Below, piece by piece: positions 10,578-18,402 of a stretch of 18,402 nt of DNA. The number at the start of each line of letters is the position of its first letter. Positions within the stretch are counted from its first letter, which is position 1. The position numbers and the translations under genes were made by a program. The DNA comes from Candidatus Bathyarchaeum sp. Lineage in GTDB: Archaea > Thermoproteota > Bathyarchaeia > Bathyarchaeales > Bathyarchaeaceae. The notes below the pieces were generated by a model, which had not been told where the DNA came from, made no database searches, and saw nothing but the letters and a program-made list of their open reading frames with translations. The stretch is from contig JAOZIF010000100.1 of assembly GCA_026014495.1 (NCBI GenBank), positions 1 to 18,402 on the forward strand, given 5' to 3'.

Positions 10578-10658
10578 GATTATATGCTCTGCTGTTTTGA
10601 TTGATGTTTGGTTTAATCTTGTTTATTGTGCCAAAAAAAGGGCACCGTAAAAAATGGG

Positions 10659-10784
10659 CTAGTCTTCTATTTCTTCGGTTTCTTCTTTGCCATAAACCAT
10701 GTATAAGAAGCCTAGAACCAATGCTATGAAAATCAAAACTGATAAACCGACAAGTATCCACGCGAAGTATCCGTCTACAGTCAT
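10659..10784 (-). CDS. 41-aa single-pass membrane microprotein
   Basis: Not in the ORF track: MTVDGYFAWILVGLSVLIFIALVLGFLYMVYGKEETEEIED*. GAAGGAGAG SD 7 nt upstream, one clean TM helix, acidic tail, followed by T tracts. Confidence 0.65.
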   Translation of the reverse strand: MTVDGYFAWILVGLSVLIFIALVLGFLYMVYGKEETEEIED

Positions 10785-10824
10785 TTGCTAACTCTCCTTC
10801 GTGTAATATTTGAATGAGCTATAT

Positions 10825-11235
10825 TTAAGCTGTAACCTTCTTCCACTCTTCCATGAGGCAGTCGTAGAGCCTATCTTCTTCTTCAATGTTATCGTACAGC
10901 TCAAAGGCTTGTGCTATTTTTTGAGCAATAAGATGATAACAAATGTTTGCTTCCCTATCCATTACTCGAAAATAGAAATCGTCACAGGAACAAAAACCTG
11001 CCTCTGGCATAATCTGGTATTCGCGTTCTCTGCCCACAACAATCCAGACAATTCTTTTGCTGGGACTAAAAACGTACTTTTTAACCCTCTTTTCTTGTAT
11101 GGTGTCCCATGCTTTAGTAAACCGTGAACCAAGCGCCTCTGAAAGCTGGGCTAGGTTGTCCTTTGTTATTTTGCCCTTTATTTTTGCTTCTTCACAAACT
11201 TTCTCAAGTACCTTAATTTCTTTGGGCGATTTCAT
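10825..11235 (-). CDS. SWIM zinc-finger domain protein
   Basis: C-S-C-D-D-F...C-Y-H SWIM signature (CxCx(n)CxH). Confidence 0.8.
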   Translation of the reverse strand: MKSPKEIKVLEKVCEEAKIKGKITKDNLAQLSEALGSRFTKAWDTIQEKRVKKYVFSPSKRIVWIVVGREREYQIMPEAGFCSCDDFYFRVMDREANICYHLIAQKIAQAFELYDNIEEEDRLYDCLMEEWKKVTA

Positions 11236-11292
11236 AAGCTGTCCCTTGAACCTGTTATTGACTTAGTGGAACTGTTAGCGCTTCAGCGAATT

Positions 11293-11916
11293 TTATTCGA
11301 TTTTTATTTGTTCTCCACTGGGTTTTTTCTCTTCGATTTTGGGTAATGTAACCTCTAGCACACCATTCTTGTATGCAGATTTAGCTTTCTTTGGGTCAAT
11401 TTTTGCTGGAATATCTATTTCTTTGAAGTATTTGCGTTCAGAAGTGTCAACAGAAATCGTTAACTTGTCTTCTGTTCCAGACAGCTTGATTTCTTCTTTT
11501 TCAACTCCCGGTAATTCCACTATAACCTTTATTTCTCCATCTGCGTCGACAATGTCTACGAGTGGTTCTCGTTCTTGCTTTACATCAATGCAGGGCTGGT
11601 TTATTCCACACGATTCGGGCTCACTTGAAGGTTTGACATTGCCAAATTCTCTTATTTTTGGTTTCCCGTCTGGTCCAACGGTCATGCTGTAGCCATACAC
11701 AAAAGGACCCCACTCTGGTACTGTTGAGCCGTCAGGAAGTTTTCGTTCACGCTTCAAGTCTTCTGGTATGCGTGTTCTAAATCGCTCAAAGTCTCTTTCC
11801 ATCATTTCTTCCATTTCTTTCATCATGTCTTCGATGTCTCCGAAGAACCAGTTTCCAAAAAATGGGTTGCGTTTCTTTCTTTTTTTAAACCATTCTGGCA
11901 TTTCGTCCCCTGACAT
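11293..11916 (-). CDS. hsp20: Archaeal small heat-shock protein (Hsp20/alpha-crystallin family)
   Basis: GPFVYGYSMTVGPDGKPKIREFGN, EREPLVDI, ELPGVEKEEI and AYKNGVLEVTL; GGTGA SD. Confidence 0.92.
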   Translation of the reverse strand: MSGDEMPEWFKKRKKRNPFFGNWFFGDIEDMMKEMEEMMERDFERFRTRIPEDLKRERKLPDGSTVPEWGPFVYGYSMTVGPDGKPKIREFGNVKPSSEPESCGINQPCIDVKQEREPLVDIVDADGEIKVIVELPGVEKEEIKLSGTEDKLTISVDTSERKYFKEIDIPAKIDPKKAKSAYKNGVLEVTLPKIEEKKPSGEQIKIE

Positions 11917-12880: not shown

Positions 12881-13699
12881 TTAGTTGTTTAGGGTGTTTT
12901 TGATTGCTTTGTAGAGTTTGTTGTTTGAGGCTGCGATGAATGAGAGTCTTTGTGTTGCTTCTAATGGAACGTTTAGTTCTTTTCCTTCTGGCGTAACAAT
13001 GATTCCGCCTGCTTCGCGGAGTATTAGATATGATGCGACCATGTCTGTTACTCGCAGTTTTCCTCTAAGGTCAATGAATGCATCTGTGGAGCCGTCTGCG
13101 ACGTAGCAGATTTCTTGGGCGTTGGCGCCGAAATGTCGGAAATGTTTTCCAGCCTTGAACAGGTTTCCTAGTTTGTTTACGATGTCTTCTAGTTTGATTG
13201 TGTTTAAGTCAACACCAATCAGGGCATCTTCTATGTTAGCTGTCTTTGATGGTTCAATTCTTTTTCCATTCCGGAATGCTCCGCCGTTCTTTTGGGCTGT
13301 GTATGTTATGTCGTGAACGATGTCGGATACAATTGCTGTTTCCACATCTTTGAGCCAAGGAGTTTTCGATACTGCTATCACGTTTGCGCTAAATGGCAAC
13401 CCACGCACAGCATTGGTTGTGCCATCCACAGGGTCTGTTATAACATAATGTTCAGAGGGACCTAAGCCAATCTTTTTTGTTCCTGCCTCTTCGCTAACTA
13501 ATGTGCATGATATTTCGTGCTTGCCTAGGCAGTCTATCAGCGCTTTTTCTGCAGCCAAATCAATTCGTTTTGATGTGTCCCCGCCTGCGCCAACACCAAA
13601 GCCAACTGCAGCTTTTGGTGACCCATAATACCTGAGTGCTGCTTTTCTCATCTTTTGTGCGCATTCTTGCAGTATATCCATCCAGTTCATTGCGTTCAC
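12881..13699 (-). CDS. suhB: Inositol monophosphatase / fructose-1,6-bisphosphatase family
   Basis: GAGGD...ID..AE, VSEE, DPVDGTTN, R-x-F-G and RVTD motifs. Alternative ATG start at 13690. Confidence 0.85.
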   Translation of the reverse strand: MNAMNWMDILQECAQKMRKAALRYYGSPKAAVGFGVGAGGDTSKRIDLAAEKALIDCLGKHEISCTLVSEEAGTKKIGLGPSEHYVITDPVDGTTNAVRGLPFSANVIAVSKTPWLKDVETAIVSDIVHDITYTAQKNGGAFRNGKRIEPSKTANIEDALIGVDLNTIKLEDIVNKLGNLFKAGKHFRHFGANAQEICYVADGSTDAFIDLRGKLRVTDMVASYLILREAGGIIVTPEGKELNVPLEATQRLSFIAASNNKLYKAIKNTLNN

Positions 13700-13796
13700 G
13701 TCATAGTTTTGTTTAGGAGAGGTGCTTCTTTAACTTTTTAATTTTCAGCTAAGCGAAAAGACACTTAAGGAAGATTTGATTTTTTGAAACAAAGGA

Positions 13797-13884
13797 GCGG
13801 GGGTCGCCGAGCCAGGTCAAAGGCGCAGGCTTCAGGAGCCTGTCCCGTAGGGGTTCGTGGGTTCGAATCCCACCCCCCGCACCA
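13797..13884 (+). tRNA. tRNA-Leu(CAG), intronless, CCA encoded
   Basis: GCGGGGG/CCCCCGC acceptor stem; anticodon arm CAGGC-TTCAGGA-GCCTG (CAG at 13833-13835); long variable arm; GTGGG-TTCGAAT-CCCAC T arm; ACCA end. Confidence 0.97.
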
Positions 13885-13885
13885 T
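13865..13885 (+). repeat. attL-like copy of the 21-bp direct repeat (tRNA 3' end)
   Basis: GAATCCCACCCCCCGCACCAT, identical to 18348-18368. Confidence 0.92.
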
Positions 13886-13899
13886 TTTACTAGTAAATT
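13885..13899. repeat. Left inner-end palindromic motif
   Basis: TTTTACTAGTAAATT, containing the perfect palindrome TTTACTAGTAAA; 14/15 identical to 18326-18340. Confidence 0.6.
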
Positions 13900-13937
13900 A
13901 TGAAATAGGTTCCAGTCTTCTTATTACTTGATTTGGA

Positions 13938-14050
13938 ATGCCAAAACCAAACAAAGGCAAGACAAATACTGTCAAAGAGCAATTTACGTGTAATTTCCCT
14001 CAGAAACGATGGCTGAAGCCTAGAAAAATAAAACGAAAACTGAACTTTTT
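13938..14050 (+). pseudogene. Probable decayed small DNA-binding (ribbon-helix-helix-like) gene
   Basis: ATG 13938 gives MPKPNKGKTNTVKE; a -1 frame continues AIYV*FPSETMAEA*KNK. It resembles, from memory only, archaeal T-x-K-E-R-A-I-Y-V-Y-L-P-S...W-K proteins. Needs one frameshift and two stops. Confidence 0.4.
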
Positions 14051-14304
14051 ATGAAAAGGTGTGTTTATTACACTGTGAAGCCATATATACATTTAATTTG
14101 CGAAAAACTACACTGTATATAAAATTAATTTTTACCCCCCTCCATTTATGCGCCGTACATGTTCGAGTAGACCACTTAGTCCTCAAGGACCCCGAGAAAA
14201 ATGGAACCATCCCAACATGTTCAGCTTGCGTTAAACTTGTTCCAGTGTTACGGGCACTTCCAAAAAAGAACAAAATATTTATAATAAGTTGAAGTTAACT
14301 TTCT

Positions 14305-15096
14305 TTATTGGTTTTTGTATTCTAGTGCTTGTTTCCAGATTTTTTCAAAATAATCTCGAAATACGGTTACGAAACAAGGATTGTTTGTCCATATGCTACA
14401 TGGGAATGTTTTGTTTTTTATGGTTTCACAACAAGCAAGAACCGCCTTGTCATCATGGATTCCTAATTCAACTCTAAGGGGATAGCGAACATATTTTAAT
14501 TTGAGATTTGGCGATCTTAGAGCTTGCAAGATTTTCGGAGCTTTCAGTTCCCTTTCCAGCTCTTCGTTAATTATTCGAATTTTTACGCCACGTTCAAGCG
14601 CTTTCATAAATGTTTCATACATGTCAAATGCGGCAATTGTCGCCCCTATCCGAGACGCAATAATGTCAACTGTTGATGTATTGTTGTCTAAAACTTTTTT
14701 CGCTTTTCTAACAAATGCGCTTTCAGGTACCATTATGAAGTTTGTTTCATCTTTCAAAAGTGACTCGTTATTAGTGAATCTGTTTTTGTTGAGAACTGAT
14801 TTTATTTTTGTTTGCAATTCTAAGTTTTTTTGTTTGCTTTTTTCCAGCAAAAACTGTAATCCTTCTTGAATTGGGGCTGCTTTAAAGCGGTTTGGGGTGC
14901 CTATTATTTTTTCAACTAACCCTTTTTTGCAAAGGGTAGTTAATAATCTATAACTGTCTGATCGTGCAACATGCGCCATCTGTGAGATCTCTTTTGCAGA
15001 AGCCTCGCCTAATTTAACAAGAGCGCAGTAAACCTTTGCTTCACAATAATTAAGCCCCAAAGCTTCTATTAATTGTATTATTTCATCATCAATCAA
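14305..15096 (-). CDS. TrmB-family transcriptional regulator
   Basis: N-terminal wHTH (LGLNYCEAKVYCALVKLGEASAKEISQMAHVARSDSYRLL...KGLVEKI.GTP.RF), coiled linker, and PLD-like effector domain (ALERGVKIRII, IHDDKAVL, WTNNP.FV.VF..YFE.IW). Confidence 0.88.
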   Translation of the reverse strand: MIDDEIIQLIEALGLNYCEAKVYCALVKLGEASAKEISQMAHVARSDSYRLLTTLCKKGLVEKIIGTPNRFKAAPIQEGLQFLLEKSKQKNLELQTKIKSVLNKNRFTNNESLLKDETNFIMVPESAFVRKAKKVLDNNTSTVDIIASRIGATIAAFDMYETFMKALERGVKIRIINEELERELKAPKILQALRSPNLKLKYVRYPLRVELGIHDDKAVLACCETIKNKTFPCSIWTNNPCFVTVFRDYFEKIWKQALEYKNQ

Positions 15097-15130
15097 CTTT
15101 CTACACGCTTTCCAACAGCTCTTTTCAACC

Positions 15131-15163
15131 TCGAACTTTTGTTACATGTGTTTACAGTTCGAT
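15131..15163. promoter_or_regulatory. Inverted repeat in the divergent trmB / beta-propeller intergenic region, candidate operator
   Basis: TCGAACT-N19-AGTTCGA. Confidence 0.3.
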
Positions 15164-15312
15164 TGTTTTGTTGTCAGTTGTATTTCTATACACTCTTTTT
15201 GTAATCTGAATTTAATTCTTTGTTAGTTGTTAATCAACTTACTAAGTGTTATTAGCTGAATCTTGGACAATGATTCCTCATTAAATCTATAAAAATGGAG
15301 AAAAAATAAAAA

Positions 15313-18042
15313 ATGAATAAAGAAAAAAAATCAAAAATATCCGTTATCTCTTTAGTTCTAATGTTACTTTGTGTTAGTTTTATGGCTATTTTACAAACAA
15401 ATGCTGCCAACACAACAGACTATGAGAACTTGTTACAATATGAATGGCCCGTAGCAGGTGCTGATGCTGGCAGAACACATTTTTCAGCCGGACCCGCTCC
15501 AAACTCTCCGGATATACTATGGAAAAAAGCTATGCCGACAATAAACTTCATGTCTCCAGTAGCATTCAACGGCAATCTTTTCGTTGGACAGGGGAGTAAC
15601 CTATTAGCGTTGGATCCTTTTACAAGCGAAATTGTTTATAATGTTACTGTTCCCTCTATTCCCGATAGAATCTGCACTATTATGAATATCTTCAAGATCG
15701 ATGATACACAAATTGGTGTAGTAATCGGTTCGAGTGGATCTTATCCTACTACATCATCATTATGGGCACTTAGAATTCATAACATCGCTGATGGTAGTAA
15801 TCTATGGAGTGATCCTGATCCCAAAGTCGCAAGCTTACGATCTGGGCTCCTCAACTGTGCCAACTATGTCGAAGAAGAAAAAATGTTGTACGTAGCTGTC
15901 GGTAATGAAACCGGTCGGGGTTCTTTTGCGGCAGGATCTTCTGGGAAAATATTGGCGTGGGATATTTCGGATCCACGATCTCCATCACTTAAATGGACAT
16001 ATCTTTCGGATGGTGTTATTGGTGACTGGGGAACGAATTTTGTTTATGGTGAAGGAAAATTATGGCCTGATGGCAGCGCACACCACCAACCTTGTCTTGA
16101 CGCAAAAACTGGCCAGATACTTTGGGACACTGAATTGACTGGAATACGAACATATCAAGGCACATACTATGAAGGCAAACTATTAAGGGGATTATTGGAT
16201 AATACTTTTGTTGCCCTTGATGCAAAAACTGGTCAAATTCTTTGGTCTTTCAATCCAGGTACTTACGGTTTCTGGTGTAGCGGCACATCAGCAGCATATG
16301 GAATGGTATACTGCACCAATGTTGATGGAAACACATATGCTTTGGACGTAGAAACTGGCGAAGTGATTTGGACCCATTGGGCCGGAGGGCTTTATTATCC
16401 TGGACATATACAGATTGCAGATGGAAAAGTCTACGTGTGCACAAGCCAAGCAAACCCCTCCCCCATTACCCCAGAGTCTTCCCATTCAGAATATTCTTGT
16501 CTCGATGCTTACACTGGAAAAGTAATTTGGAAAGTTCAAGGTCTAGAATTCACAGCTGGTCCTATTGATACAACCTGTATTGCATATGGAAACTTCTATG
16601 GATTCAGTCACATCTATTATGGCGGCAATGGTGACTTTATTTGCTATGGGTCTCCTAAAGATTGGACCAATTTCCTTGGTGATTCCACACACAACGCAGT
16701 TGGTTATGGCGGTCCTACTGACCCTGCACTTCTATGGGAGTTCAAAACAAACGGAGCCGTCATTTCTTCGCCCGCCATAGTTGATGGAAAAGTCTACATT
16801 GGATCATACGATAAGAACTGGTACTGTCTAGATGCTCGCACTGGAGCAAAAATCTGGAACTTCACCTCAGAATATAGAATCAGGTCCTCGCCAGCAGTTG
16901 CAAACGGAAAGGTTTACACGGGTGCCGATGATGGTTATGTGTACTGTTTAGATGCTGATACAGGTCAGAAGATATGGGAGGCTCCTACTCCAGGATATTG
17001 GATTCATATTTTAACTGGGACTACAGTTGAATATCGCGGCTCTCCTATTGTAGTGGGTAACAATGTATATGTGGGTGCACTTGACGGCAAAATATACTGT
17101 CTCAACGCAAATACTGGAAACATTATATGGTCTTTACAAACTACAGGTGCTATAATTTCAACTCCTACTCACATCGCTGGTGATGGTCTCTACTTTACAT
17201 CGGTGGATGGTTACGTATACAAGCTAAATCCTGAAACAGGCAACATCATATGGAACGCGTCAACGCCAATTGGAATTGAGATTTCCATGATGGGAAGCCC
17301 CGCTGTTGGAGACGGCAAAGTATTTATCGGTTCAGGTGCTGCAGGTGGATCCCCAGCAGGTATTGGACAGTTCTACTGCCTAAATGCAACAACAGGCGAC
17401 TTTATATGGACAGTGGATCAATTGCCGGGAAGCGGTCAATTGCAACCCATCTGGTCGATGCTTTACTTAGAGGGCAAAGTTTTCCACGGTGACTTCTTTA
17501 GCTTTGACTGTCGCAACGCAACAAACGGAGATCTAATATGGTCAACTTTTCTGACAAGGGAACATTATGGTTCACCAGCCTACGCTGACGGCAAGTTCTA
17601 TGTGCCAAGCGATTCTTATGGCATATACGTTATTGATGCTGAAACTGGCGATAAATTGTCATATTTCCGAACAGGACCCGTTCAGTCTTCTCCAGCCATT
17701 TACGAAGGCAAAGTCTACTTCGGCAGCTGTGACTGGAGCGTCTATTGCCTCGAAGAATCGTCTGTTGGTACTACATACTACAGTTCACAAGACCAATCAC
17801 TAGTATCAGACCAGCAATTAGAGCTAAAGGAAGCTGCAGAACCTGAAACATCTATAGAACAAGAAGAACCTGAAACACCAGAAACTCCCACAGACCCAGA
17901 AGAACCTCAGACTCCAACCGAACCAGAAGAAACTGCGACCGAGTCAGCACTCATCACCACAGAAACTGCAATCACAGCAGTAGTCGCCATCGCGGCAATT
18001 ATCGGCGCAGTCAGCTTATACGTAATAAGGAAGCGAAAATAA
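15313..18042 (+). CDS. Secreted, C-terminally anchored PQQ-like (BamB-type) beta-propeller repeat protein, 909 aa
   Basis: Basic and hydrophobic signal peptide; many repeats of about 40 aa of the (C/A)LDAxTGxxIW type, forming two propeller-sized blocks each starting with a W...D..R/H motif; acidic E/P/T linker; TM helix; RKRK end. Confidence 0.9.
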   Translation: MNKEKKSKISVISLVLMLLCVSFMAILQTNAANTTDYENLLQYEWPVAGADAGRTHFSAGPAPNSPDILWKKAMPTINFMSPVAFNGNLFVGQGSNLLALDPFTSEIVYNVTVPSIPDRICTIMNIFKIDDTQIGVVIGSSGSYPTTSSLWALRIHNIADGSNLWSDPDPKVASLRSGLLNCANYVEEEKMLYVAVGNETGRGSFAAGSSGKILAWDISDPRSPSLKWTYLSDGVIGDWGTNFVYGEGKLWPDGSAHHQPCLDAKTGQILWDTELTGIRTYQGTYYEGKLLRGLLDNTFVALDAKTGQILWSFNPGTYGFWCSGTSAAYGMVYCTNVDGNTYALDVETGEVIWTHWAGGLYYPGHIQIADGKVYVCTSQANPSPITPESSHSEYSCLDAYTGKVIWKVQGLEFTAGPIDTTCIAYGNFYGFSHIYYGGNGDFICYGSPKDWTNFLGDSTHNAVGYGGPTDPALLWEFKTNGAVISSPAIVDGKVYIGSYDKNWYCLDARTGAKIWNFTSEYRIRSSPAVANGKVYTGADDGYVYCLDADTGQKIWEAPTPGYWIHILTGTTVEYRGSPIVVGNNVYVGALDGKIYCLNANTGNIIWSLQTTGAIISTPTHIAGDGLYFTSVDGYVYKLNPETGNIIWNASTPIGIEISMMGSPAVGDGKVFIGSGAAGGSPAGIGQFYCLNATTGDFIWTVDQLPGSGQLQPIWSMLYLEGKVFHGDFFSFDCRNATNGDLIWSTFLTREHYGSPAYADGKFYVPSDSYGIYVIDAETGDKLSYFRTGPVQSSPAIYEGKVYFGSCDWSVYCLEESSVGTTYYSSQDQSLVSDQQLELKEAAEPETSIEQEEPETPETPTDPEEPQTPTEPEETATESALITTETAITAVVAIAAIIGAVSLYVIRKRK
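17839..17934 (+). repeat. Low-complexity Glu/Pro/Thr linker
   Basis: EPETSIEQEEPETPETPTDPEEPQTPTEPEET; GAACCTGAAACA at 17839 and 17866. Confidence 0.8.
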
Positions 18043-18048
18043 ACCAAA

Positions 18049-18072
18049 TTTTTTCCCTCCCTTCTTTTTTTT
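18049..18072 (+). terminator. Pyrimidine/oligo-T archaeal terminator of the beta-propeller gene
   Basis: TTTTTTCCCTCCCTTCTTTTTTTT starting 7 nt after the stop codon. Confidence 0.6.
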
Positions 18073-18091
18073 GGGAGTAAAACCTCATCGG

Positions 18092-18224
18092 AAGAAAATG
18101 GGGACTGAAAAGGCTCAGGCACAAAAATGAAAAATAACTGAAGCAATAGTAGCTGTTTGTTGGTTTTCATTTTTTTCTCCTCTAATGCGTTTGTGCATGA
18201 GCCTCAGCAAACCCCACTATTCTT
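18092..18224. other. 133-nt imperfect inverted repeat (long hairpin)
   Basis: Nested pairings AAGAA/TTCTT, TGGGG/CCCCA, CTG/CAG, AGGCTCAGGCACAAA/TTTGTGCATGAGCCT (14/15) and AATGAAAA/TTTTCATT. Confidence 0.6.
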
Positions 18225-18325
18225 ACAAAAAACGGCTTTCTAAAGAAAAAAGCAAAATAGACAATACATTGTAGTCAATAATTATCTCAAAAAAAGCTTT
18301 GGAAACTAGATGAACAAAAATATTT

Positions 18326-18340
18326 TTTTACTGGTAAATT
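18326..18340. repeat. Right inner-end palindromic motif
   Basis: TTTTACTGGTAAATT, 7 nt before attR; 14/15 identical to 13885-13899. Confidence 0.6.
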
Positions 18341-18347
18341 CAGGTGT

Positions 18348-18368
18348 GAATCCCACCCCCCGCACCAT
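18348..18368 (+). repeat. attR-like copy: duplicated 3' 21 bp of tRNA-Leu
   Basis: GAATCCCACCCCCCGCACCAT, not preceded by the rest of a tRNA. Confidence 0.92.
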
Positions 18369-18402
18369 GAATTAAGCCGTTTTTAAGATTATTTTTTAGT
18401 AA

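Follow-up and report, generated by a model that had tools for sequence, protein, structure and literature searches.

We analysed an 18,402-nt stretch of a Candidatus Bathyarchaeum genome (contig JAOZIF010000100.1, here C106; hereafter the window) and conclude that the 4.44-kb block lying directly 3' of its tRNA-Leu(CAG) gene has no integrase and very probably derives by deletion from a Bathyarchaeia integrative element that entered the 3' end of this tRNA gene. The block is flanked by a duplicated attachment (att) sequence, ends on the right in a 42-nt unit found throughout a family of elements, carries on the left the relic of a gene of integrase-bearing relatives, heads a tandem array, and sits at a locus whose content varies between relatives. 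The genome is a metagenome-assembled genome (MAG) of 2.19 Mb in 196 contigs and is 93% complete.

The window was searched for tRNA genes with ARAGORN and Rfam, and its sole tRNA gene (ARAGORN) is tRNA-Leu(CAG). The 21-mer GAATCCCACCCCCCGCACCAT comprises the last 20 nt of this gene and the next T, and occurs in the window in two exact copies only, the attL core at the tRNA and the attR core, with 4,442 bp between them; the repeat grows to 26 nt if two mismatches are tolerated. In 200 dinucleotide-preserving shuffles no match arose, even at three mismatches, and the repeat is not due to chance. As in an integrated tRNA-targeting element, the 3' part of the tRNA is duplicated and the tRNA is intact at one end, with 0-4 mismatches to the orthologous tRNA of 17 relatives. 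The window ends 34 nt past the second core copy. Further copies of the core are present elsewhere in the genome, several tRNA-Leu genes of which have the same 3' end; the 3' end used is common to tRNA-Leu with the anticodons CAG, TAG and GAG.

At the right end, the core closes a 42-nt unit, in which the palindrome TTTACTGGTAAATT is followed by 7 nt and then by the tRNA 3' end. TTTACTGGTAAA sits nine bases to the left of the attR core, and six TTTACYRGTAAA sites are found in the 2.19-Mb genome (~1.3 expected), two of which flank the two cores. Using palindrome-N9-GAATCCCAC as the search pattern, with the reversed pattern as a control, we detected the unit at 13 sites in 8 of 25 genomes of the genus and at 24 sites in 16 of 201 genomes of the order, where the control had 0 matches. 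Counted over the other genomes of the genus that were sampled, the unit recurs in 9 of 23. The pattern was also found on 78 public metagenome contigs, several with two copies 0.8-2.3 kb apart, and had 0 matches in IMG/VR viral contigs. Species-representative genomes contained 13 stretches with the unit, 12 of them labelled Bathyarchaeota, Bathyarchaeia or Thermoproteota. Homology between the window's right end and the other copies extends over 42-45 nt only and stops sharply at the palindrome. Units lie 3' of tRNA-Leu genes with all three anticodons, and in one relative (G009) four to five sites run in succession after tRNA-Leu(TAG), bracketing lectin-like, PH-domain and SOUL proteins, a heliorhodopsin fragment and a hydrolase, as well as a TrmB fragment, a Na/Ca exchanger and a thermosome subunit. 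In many units the core is decayed, as expected of scars. Altogether, this is a unit family widespread in Bathyarchaeia, made of small tRNA-Leu-anchored cargo cassettes that end in one 42-base site.

Two side observations concern this family. The 13th species-representative stretch (L173, CAVVAJ010000005.1) carries an exact unit on an 880-kb contig labelled Chloroflexia; it has 35% G+C and archaeal-like genes with matches in the MAG studied here (G000), and the contig is probably mis-binned or mislabelled. On ~12 metagenome contigs (for example L118 6300-6347 and L124 12440-12490), the unit is preceded, 22 nt upstream, by a second tRNA-like 3' end (GGTTCAAATCTCACCTCGACCA), a pattern suggestive of compound att remnants left by elements with another tRNA as their target.

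The left end ties the block to an integrase-bearing element. The attL core is followed there by a palindrome of its own, and the same core-T-palindrome junction recurs in L124, L068, L098, L111 and G009, and in degenerate form in G005. About 190 nt after attL align with L124 and L068, where they follow a tRNA-Leu core, and with G005, where they follow the tRNA; the homology stops near 14050. In L124 this region belongs to an intact small gene of 179 aa that starts MPKPNKGKTETIKKRAIYVYLPS. The relic in the window opens MPKPNKGKTNTVKE, loses frame at a 4-nt gap and continues AIYV*FPSETMAEA*, an in-frame TAA and TAG replacing a Tyr and a Trp of the intact homologues; with a frameshift and two in-frame stops, this gene is dead. 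In L124 the small gene is followed by the gene for a tyrosine integrase of 316 aa (PF00589, 6.2e-24; PHROG integrase, 7.3e-35) whose N-terminal domain is SAM-like, both genes lying inside an 11-kb interval (11.2 kb) closed by a decayed unit, and no replication module was recognised in this element with the libraries used. We would guess that the L124 small protein, which gives the impression of a ribbon-helix-helix protein, is an excision or regulatory factor.

Both ends of the block are homologous to integrase-bearing elements at the same target (L124 on the left; L088, L105, G001 and G012 on the right). Because its left end carries the pseudogenised first gene of integrase-bearing relatives, the block is supported as a decayed element; it keeps both ends of an L124-type element, with a dead first gene and no integrase. 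The sequence-only reading of this DNA had described an exact 21-bp duplication of the tRNA 3' end around ~4.5 kb, taken it for an attL/attR signature, seen a TrmB regulator and a surface propeller as the only large genes, without a recombinase, and noted that the window closes 34 nt past attR. All of this was confirmed, and the conserved 42-nt right end together with the left-end relic bears out both the att signature and, of the origins proposed, that of a decayed integrative element.

Integrase genes or relics adjoin equivalent sites in G001, G012, G009, L072, L088, L105 and L119. In G001, G012, G009, L072 and L119 these are related to the integrase of contig C1 and lie near the tRNA or core on the opposite strand, and L088 and L105 each have a 312-codon frame leading from the unit into the integrase. 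As a separate observation, no stop interrupts the frame of the latter two (L088 260-1195, L105 9045-9980) between the palindrome and the integrase, across the tRNA-like core, and no start codon lies upstream; this may be a coincidence or an SSV-like split that is very short. For most units, the upstream frame is closed within 0-30 codons, likewise without a start codon. An SSV-type split integrase was considered and rejected, as the L088/L105 frame has neither an upstream start codon nor conserved coding sequence, and tblastn found no split int(N)/int(C) fragments at the two att sites of the block. Integrase genes and fragments were also met in other settings. At C174:60198-63567, a propeller gene and its 3' element (see below) are followed on the same strand by a 181-codon C-terminal integrase fragment with an internal TGA, another surface module beside a dead integrase. 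In C1 (1,321 nt) and in L059 (G003:C5) at 10619-11902, the 3' end of an integrase gene overlaps the 5' part of a co-directional tRNA, tRNA-Pro(GGG) in L059 (ARAGORN) and Arg(GCG)-like by eye in C1, an att arrangement unlike the tRNA-Leu one.

What remains between the ends is a TrmB-family regulator, a helix-turn-helix protein by Pfam, and a divergently transcribed 909-aa surface protein composed of a signal peptide, two propellers, an E/P/T-rich stalk and a C-terminal transmembrane (TM) helix ending RKRK. Among the open reading frames (ORFs) of the block of at least 60 aa, Pfam assigned no family to the short ones and found no replication, capsid or recombinase gene; no integrase gene lies between the att sites. 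The TrmB regulator has no orthologue in 24 genomes of the genus, its best identity being 40%, versus 64-94% for the flank genes, and its region has the lowest G+C of the window (0.34-0.37; flanks, 0.42-0.45). The propeller protein has internal repeats and paralogues in the genome at 29-41% identity. From their protein families, the cargo pair is likely a ligand-responsive TrmB that controls an anchored propeller protein. The genome holds ~12 TrmB and ~10 propeller paralogues, mostly as divergent pairs, each ending in the same 3' element; these modules show 25-41% identity and are found on contigs that include C121, C60, C45, C47, C174, C54, C171 and C56, two of them standing back to back on C54.

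The 3' element, of which the genome has more than 25 copies at 72-90% identity and the relatives many more, follows the stop codon of surface-protein genes with a TM-RKRK tail. Its fold is that of a long hairpin (-52.3 kcal/mol, z = -4.0), with G-U pairs on the + strand in the consensus stem and one AU/GC pair that covaries. No Rfam family describes it, Rfam naming the tRNA alone in 13000-18402. The element is part of the cargo gene, apart from the att machinery, and could be a 3' untranslated region (UTR) structure or a gene-conversion tract. Conservation around it also takes in the C-terminal coding sequence at 17940-18042. A small minus-strand ORF (17907-18170) was rejected as the cause of the repeat, since it is broken between copies by one-base indels just past its start codon. 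The features of the block are collected in Table 1.

Table 1. Positions in the window of the tRNA target, the two ends of the block and its content.
Feature	Positions	Strand	Basis
tRNA-Leu(CAG), intact, integration target (attL side)	13797..13884	+	ARAGORN; Rfam RF00005, 54.8 bits
attL core, T-loop through CCA plus one T, 21 nt	13865..13885	+
Left-end palindrome TTTACTAGTAAA(TT), directly after the core	13886..13899	+	Perfect palindrome
Pseudogene relic of the element's first gene (MPKPNKGKT...)	13938..14054	+	DNA alignment with L124, L068, G005; translations
TrmB-family transcriptional regulator, 263 aa, cargo	14305..15096	-	Pfam PF01978, 2.3e-16
Divergent TrmB/propeller intergenic region, presumed promoters and operator	15097..15312	.	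Gene layout
909-aa surface protein with two PQQ-type beta-propellers, cargo	15313..18042	+	Pfam PQQ_2, 3.8e-57
Conserved structured 3' element, ~185 nt	18043..18224	+	Copies, alignment, fold
Right-end part of the 42-nt unit: T, palindrome TTTACTGGTAAATT, 7-nt spacer CAGGTGT	18326..18347	+	Pattern searches
attR core, displaced copy of the tRNA 3' end, 21 nt	18348..18368	+	Identical to the attL core
Flank past attR, start of the next, older PEMT cassette	18369..18402	+	55-nt overlap with C175

Beyond the window, the block proved to be the first member of an array. Thirteen contig pairs of the MAG overlap by exactly 55 nt, the assembler's k, and by such an overlap the window contig runs into C175, the start of which is the first base of the repeat core. 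C175 encodes, in order, a PEMT-like methyltransferase, a GH-like protein, an acyltransferase, a GDSL hydrolase, a pyrimidine-dimer glycosylase, myo-inositol-1-phosphate synthase (MIPS) and a DUF1638 protein. A second unit (C175:815-856), whose core carries two mismatches and lacks one base, begins 4 nt past the PEMT stop codon, and the array thus reads tRNA, 4.44-kb TrmB/propeller block, core, 0.79-kb PEMT cassette, unit and the rest of the island to MIPS. The flank past the window's attR is homologous to the flank that follows the intact tRNA-Leu(TAG) of G011, where PEMT and the unit come directly; by this comparison, G011 would show the configuration expected before the newer block arrived, albeit at another tRNA-Leu gene. 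The order TGA-ATAT-unit is kept in seven of eight PEMT homologues (TAG stands before TGA in one), which are ~40% identical to the PEMT of this genome and sit at different tRNA-Leu genes and array positions. As a further observation, an inverted degenerate core copy abuts a palindrome ~45-75 nt past the core (L011, on C175, 60-125; L062, 10370-10405), and this copy at the head of the PEMT cassette is conserved between the genome and G011.

The contig join itself holds information. An unbranched path would have been merged by the assembler; therefore a second path enters the 55-mer that starts C175, and this path would have a different base before GAATCCC. It would be either the empty site (...GGTTC/GAATCCC...) or another cassette (...GGTGC/GAATCCC...), as far as the topology tells; the junction expected of an empty site is the tRNA through CCAT joined to GAATTAAGCC. 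In the MAG, no more than 27 tRNA genes were detected, and several of its contigs end at or inside tRNA genes, C45 for instance starting inside tRNA-Leu(TAG); tRNA-linked variation may be a main cause of its fragmentation.

We compared the locus with those of 19 relatives. The upstream genes (a 207-aa gene, a metallophosphoesterase and an inositol monophosphatase) are conserved at 64-90% amino acid identity, the metallophosphoesterase not being detected in the G005, G010 and G016 loci, and tRNA-Leu(CAG) was found next in 17 of the 19. What follows the tRNA varies: MIPS is reached 1.1 kb after it in G004; PEMT comes straight after it in G020; an integrase C-terminal relic abuts it in G012, followed by an ice-binding-like surface protein, a methyltransferase and a glycosyltransferase; propeller genes are present at the locus in G014, unrelated core genes in G005 and other cargo in G006, L116 and L117. 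Neither this TrmB nor this propeller was found at the locus in any of the relatives' loci examined, and at the DNA level the window locus matches the relatives in the tRNA and the 3' repeat only. Since the content after the tRNA varies in this way, variant and near-empty alleles exist. An inositol monophosphatase (window 12881-13699) and MIPS (C175:4585-5685) flank this hot spot, and the island probably splits an ancestral inositol-phosphate gene pair.

To place the block among such intervals, we took a census of all loci collected, counting the intervals bounded on both sides, in the same orientation, by a core or unit. There are 54 site-bounded intervals, and the 51 above 50 nt range from 113 nt to 11.2 kb (median 1,372 nt). 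Short metagenome contigs bias this census to small intervals; the long G009 contigs agree with it. Five intervals show similarity to integrases and none contains a full-length gene, the query set being without the L124 type; a later check for that type adds one intact integrase only, inside the 11.2-kb L124 interval. The cargo of the family, from a Pfam sample, includes MFS transporters, a CBS-domain pyridoxal phosphate (PLP) enzyme with a Cys/Met-metabolism enzyme, a B12-radical SAM enzyme and a type I restriction subunit; L117 carries a 680-aa TrmB-domain protein at its tRNA-Leu(CAG) locus, and L118 a 920-aa propeller beside an acyltransferase. The suspicion that a tandem array continues past attR was well founded (PEMT cassette and second unit on C175), the extra 21-mer copies and the near-empty or differently loaded alleles that had been anticipated are there, and the view of the locus as a route for swapping surface modules stands for its variability and falls for its scope, the cargo being very mixed. 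An integrase supplied from elsewhere in the genome had also been envisaged; the core copies were found and no cognate integrase was, in a MAG of 93% completeness.

Two further repeats were met around TrmB/propeller modules elsewhere in the genome. On C121, an exact 17-nt direct repeat TATGAATTCTGAGTACA (10818/15107) brackets a 4,289-bp propeller-TrmB module, with no extended similarity and no tRNA, and could represent a second att pair, one belonging to a different type of element. A 19-nt repeat around the C45 TrmB module was rejected as such a pair, being part of a longer repeated gene tail.

From these data, the history of the block can be proposed. A parent element would have entered the 3' end of tRNA-Leu(CAG) by site-specific recombination through a tyrosine recombinase. 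Its attP, as read from the junctions, would have consisted of TTTACTGGTAAATT, 7 nt, the tRNA 3' end in a copy of 20-21 nt, TTTACTAGTAAATT, the small gene and the integrase gene. Crossover within the identical 20-21 nt would have rebuilt an intact tRNA at attL and pushed the native 3' end, with the older PEMT cassette, to attR, so that the newest element would sit next to the tRNA. The small gene would then have decayed and the integrase and backbone would have been deleted, leaving as cargo the TrmB gene divergently paired with that of the anchored double beta-propeller protein. The position of the crossover and the order of these events are our reconstruction.

Several results weigh against this history. 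No intact integrase of the L124 or L088 type is present in the MAG, the 93% completeness of which leaves the absence of a cognate integrase unproven, and the L124-type integrase is represented in the 25 genomes of the genus by one C-terminal relic only, in G011. A tblastn search in which five resident integrases, a fragment and the integrases of L088 and L105 served as the eight queries detected no integrase relic inside the block. The L124 small protein has no match in Pfam, PHROG or PDB sequence searches. The TrmB and propeller genes presumably arrived as cargo of the element, and a later insertion is the alternative. Polymorphism of the sampled population at the site is suggested by assembly topology only, and an exact search of public metagenome contigs for the attB/attR junction gave 0 matches.

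The strongest competing possibility, which we hold tentatively, shares the origin just proposed and differs on present activity: the block would still be mobile as a non-autonomous element, with the integrase of a related element acting in trans to excise and re-insert it and tRNA-Leu arrays serving as cassette platforms like those of cis-mobilizable elements (CIMEs) or integron cassettes. The two cores are identical at 21 of 21 positions, and both palindromes are intact, the left one being perfect; none of the 54 intervals (median 1.37 kb) had a full integrase in the main census; unit boundaries are sharp beside unrelated cargo; PEMT and the unit stay linked in seven of eight homologues despite ~40% identity and varied tRNA-Leu genes and positions; and the assembly fork at the core suggests presence/absence variation. 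However, the MAG has no cognate integrase, the genus only one L124-type relic, many units have decayed, scar-like cores, and the left-end gene is dead; the census, moreover, is biased to small intervals by short metagenome contigs, and the varied contexts can also be explained by insertions and deletions around fixed scars. A still bolder version, somewhat more doubtful, would make the 42-nt unit a maintained recombination site and tRNA-Leu genes integron-like platforms that capture, stack and exchange integrase-less cassettes of one to three genes, with integrases supplied in trans; the block would then be one live regulator-plus-surface-protein cassette.

Non-integrase origins fare much worse. 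Some archaeal casposons insert at tRNA 3' ends, and the end palindromes could be read as 12-nt terminal inverted repeats, the core then being a target-site duplication made by a transposase or casposase in a casposon-like element or in one like a miniature inverted-repeat transposable element (MITE). We consider this very unlikely: dozens of unrelated cassettes end in the same 20 nt, which amounts to site specificity, the right palindrome stands 9 nt from the repeat and does not abut it, Pfam found no Cas1 or transposase family among the block ORFs tested, and relatives with the same ends carry tyrosine integrases. An assembly artefact, in which the second copy would stem from a chimeric join at a short repeat, seems scarcely credible even with that copy 34 nt from a contig end in an assembly of 196 contigs, several ending at or in tRNA genes, since the repeat, at 21 nt, is shorter than the k of 55, the copy forms part of a palindrome-spacer-core unit whose spacing is unchanged in independent genomes and on 78 metagenome contigs, and the synteny of relatives backs the C106-to-C175 join. 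Equally improbable is a non-mobile partial tRNA duplication or degraded second tRNA-Leu gene: several tRNA-Leu genes of the genome do have this 3' end, but the fragment starts inside the T-loop beside a conserved non-tRNA palindrome, and it would go unexplained why the left end is homologous to integrase-bearing elements and why integrase relics lie at equivalent sites.

Bathyarchaeia are abundant, mostly uncultured sediment archaea. For them, the 42-nt signature provides a searchable mark of tRNA-Leu-targeting elements and their remnants, and an anchor for finding flexible genes in fragmented MAGs; the locus is a hot spot of entry for accessory genes (surface proteins, transporters, restriction systems and metabolic enzymes), and the L124 integrase/att pair is a candidate genetic tool. 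Their known mobile elements are mainly metagenomic viruses (PMC10848311), and our literature search found Bathyarchaeia viruses with integrases and nothing on the unit family or its signature; the logic of integration and decay is known, and the cassette family looks undescribed.

Among archaeal systems, SSV- and pNOB8-type integrases target tRNA genes, leave att duplications and often decay after integration. Here, by contrast, no split integrase halves flank the block, and the L124 integrase is a separate intact gene downstream of attL; the SSV family of archaeal integrative elements is treated in PMC7253208. In bacteria, the ssrA-specific islands of Dehalococcoides (PMC3146451) integrate at a small-RNA gene and differ from the block in their tmRNA target, bacterial host and reductive dehalogenase operon cargo. 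Casposons and elements with terminal inverted repeats have Cas1 or a transposase and a repeat that abuts the inverted repeats; here Pfam gave neither family among the block ORFs tested, the right palindrome lies 9 nt off the repeat, and the repeat is a fixed sequence common to many cassettes.

[quoted passage not shown] The block resembles them in being att-flanked, in having lost its recombination genes while its att sites look functional, in having autonomous relatives and in standing in tandem with related elements; it differs in that no conjugation system or resident helper is visible, no intact L124- or L088-type integrase having been found in the 93%-complete MAG, and in belonging to another domain of life and integrase lineage.

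Integrons offer a further likeness, namely arrays of short, recombinase-less cassettes, mostly of one to three genes, each ending in a conserved short site a few bases past a stop codon. The differences are that the arrays start at tRNA-Leu genes and are not anchored at intI/attI, that gene orientation is mixed, and that the site is, by eye, a tRNA 3' end plus a palindrome and not an attC hairpin. If tRNA-Leu genes did act as platforms, this would be a tRNA-anchored integron-like cassette system in Archaea.

A close parallel in logic is found in the tycheposon islands of Prochlorococcus, where tyrosine recombinases target tRNA genes and bring in niche cargo, later arrivals push earlier ones inward, and degenerate elements, fragmented integrases and scattered partial tRNAs accumulate (Hackl et al., bioRxiv 10.1101/2020.12.28.424599). 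The block shares with these islands the targeting of tRNA, the inward pushing, the degenerate elements and the partial tRNAs. It differs in being archaeal, with unrelated integrases and an unrelated left-end gene, in the use of one tRNA-Leu 3' end with a 12-14-nt palindrome flanking the core, and in intervals that are mostly tiny (median 1.4 kb) and without an integrase.

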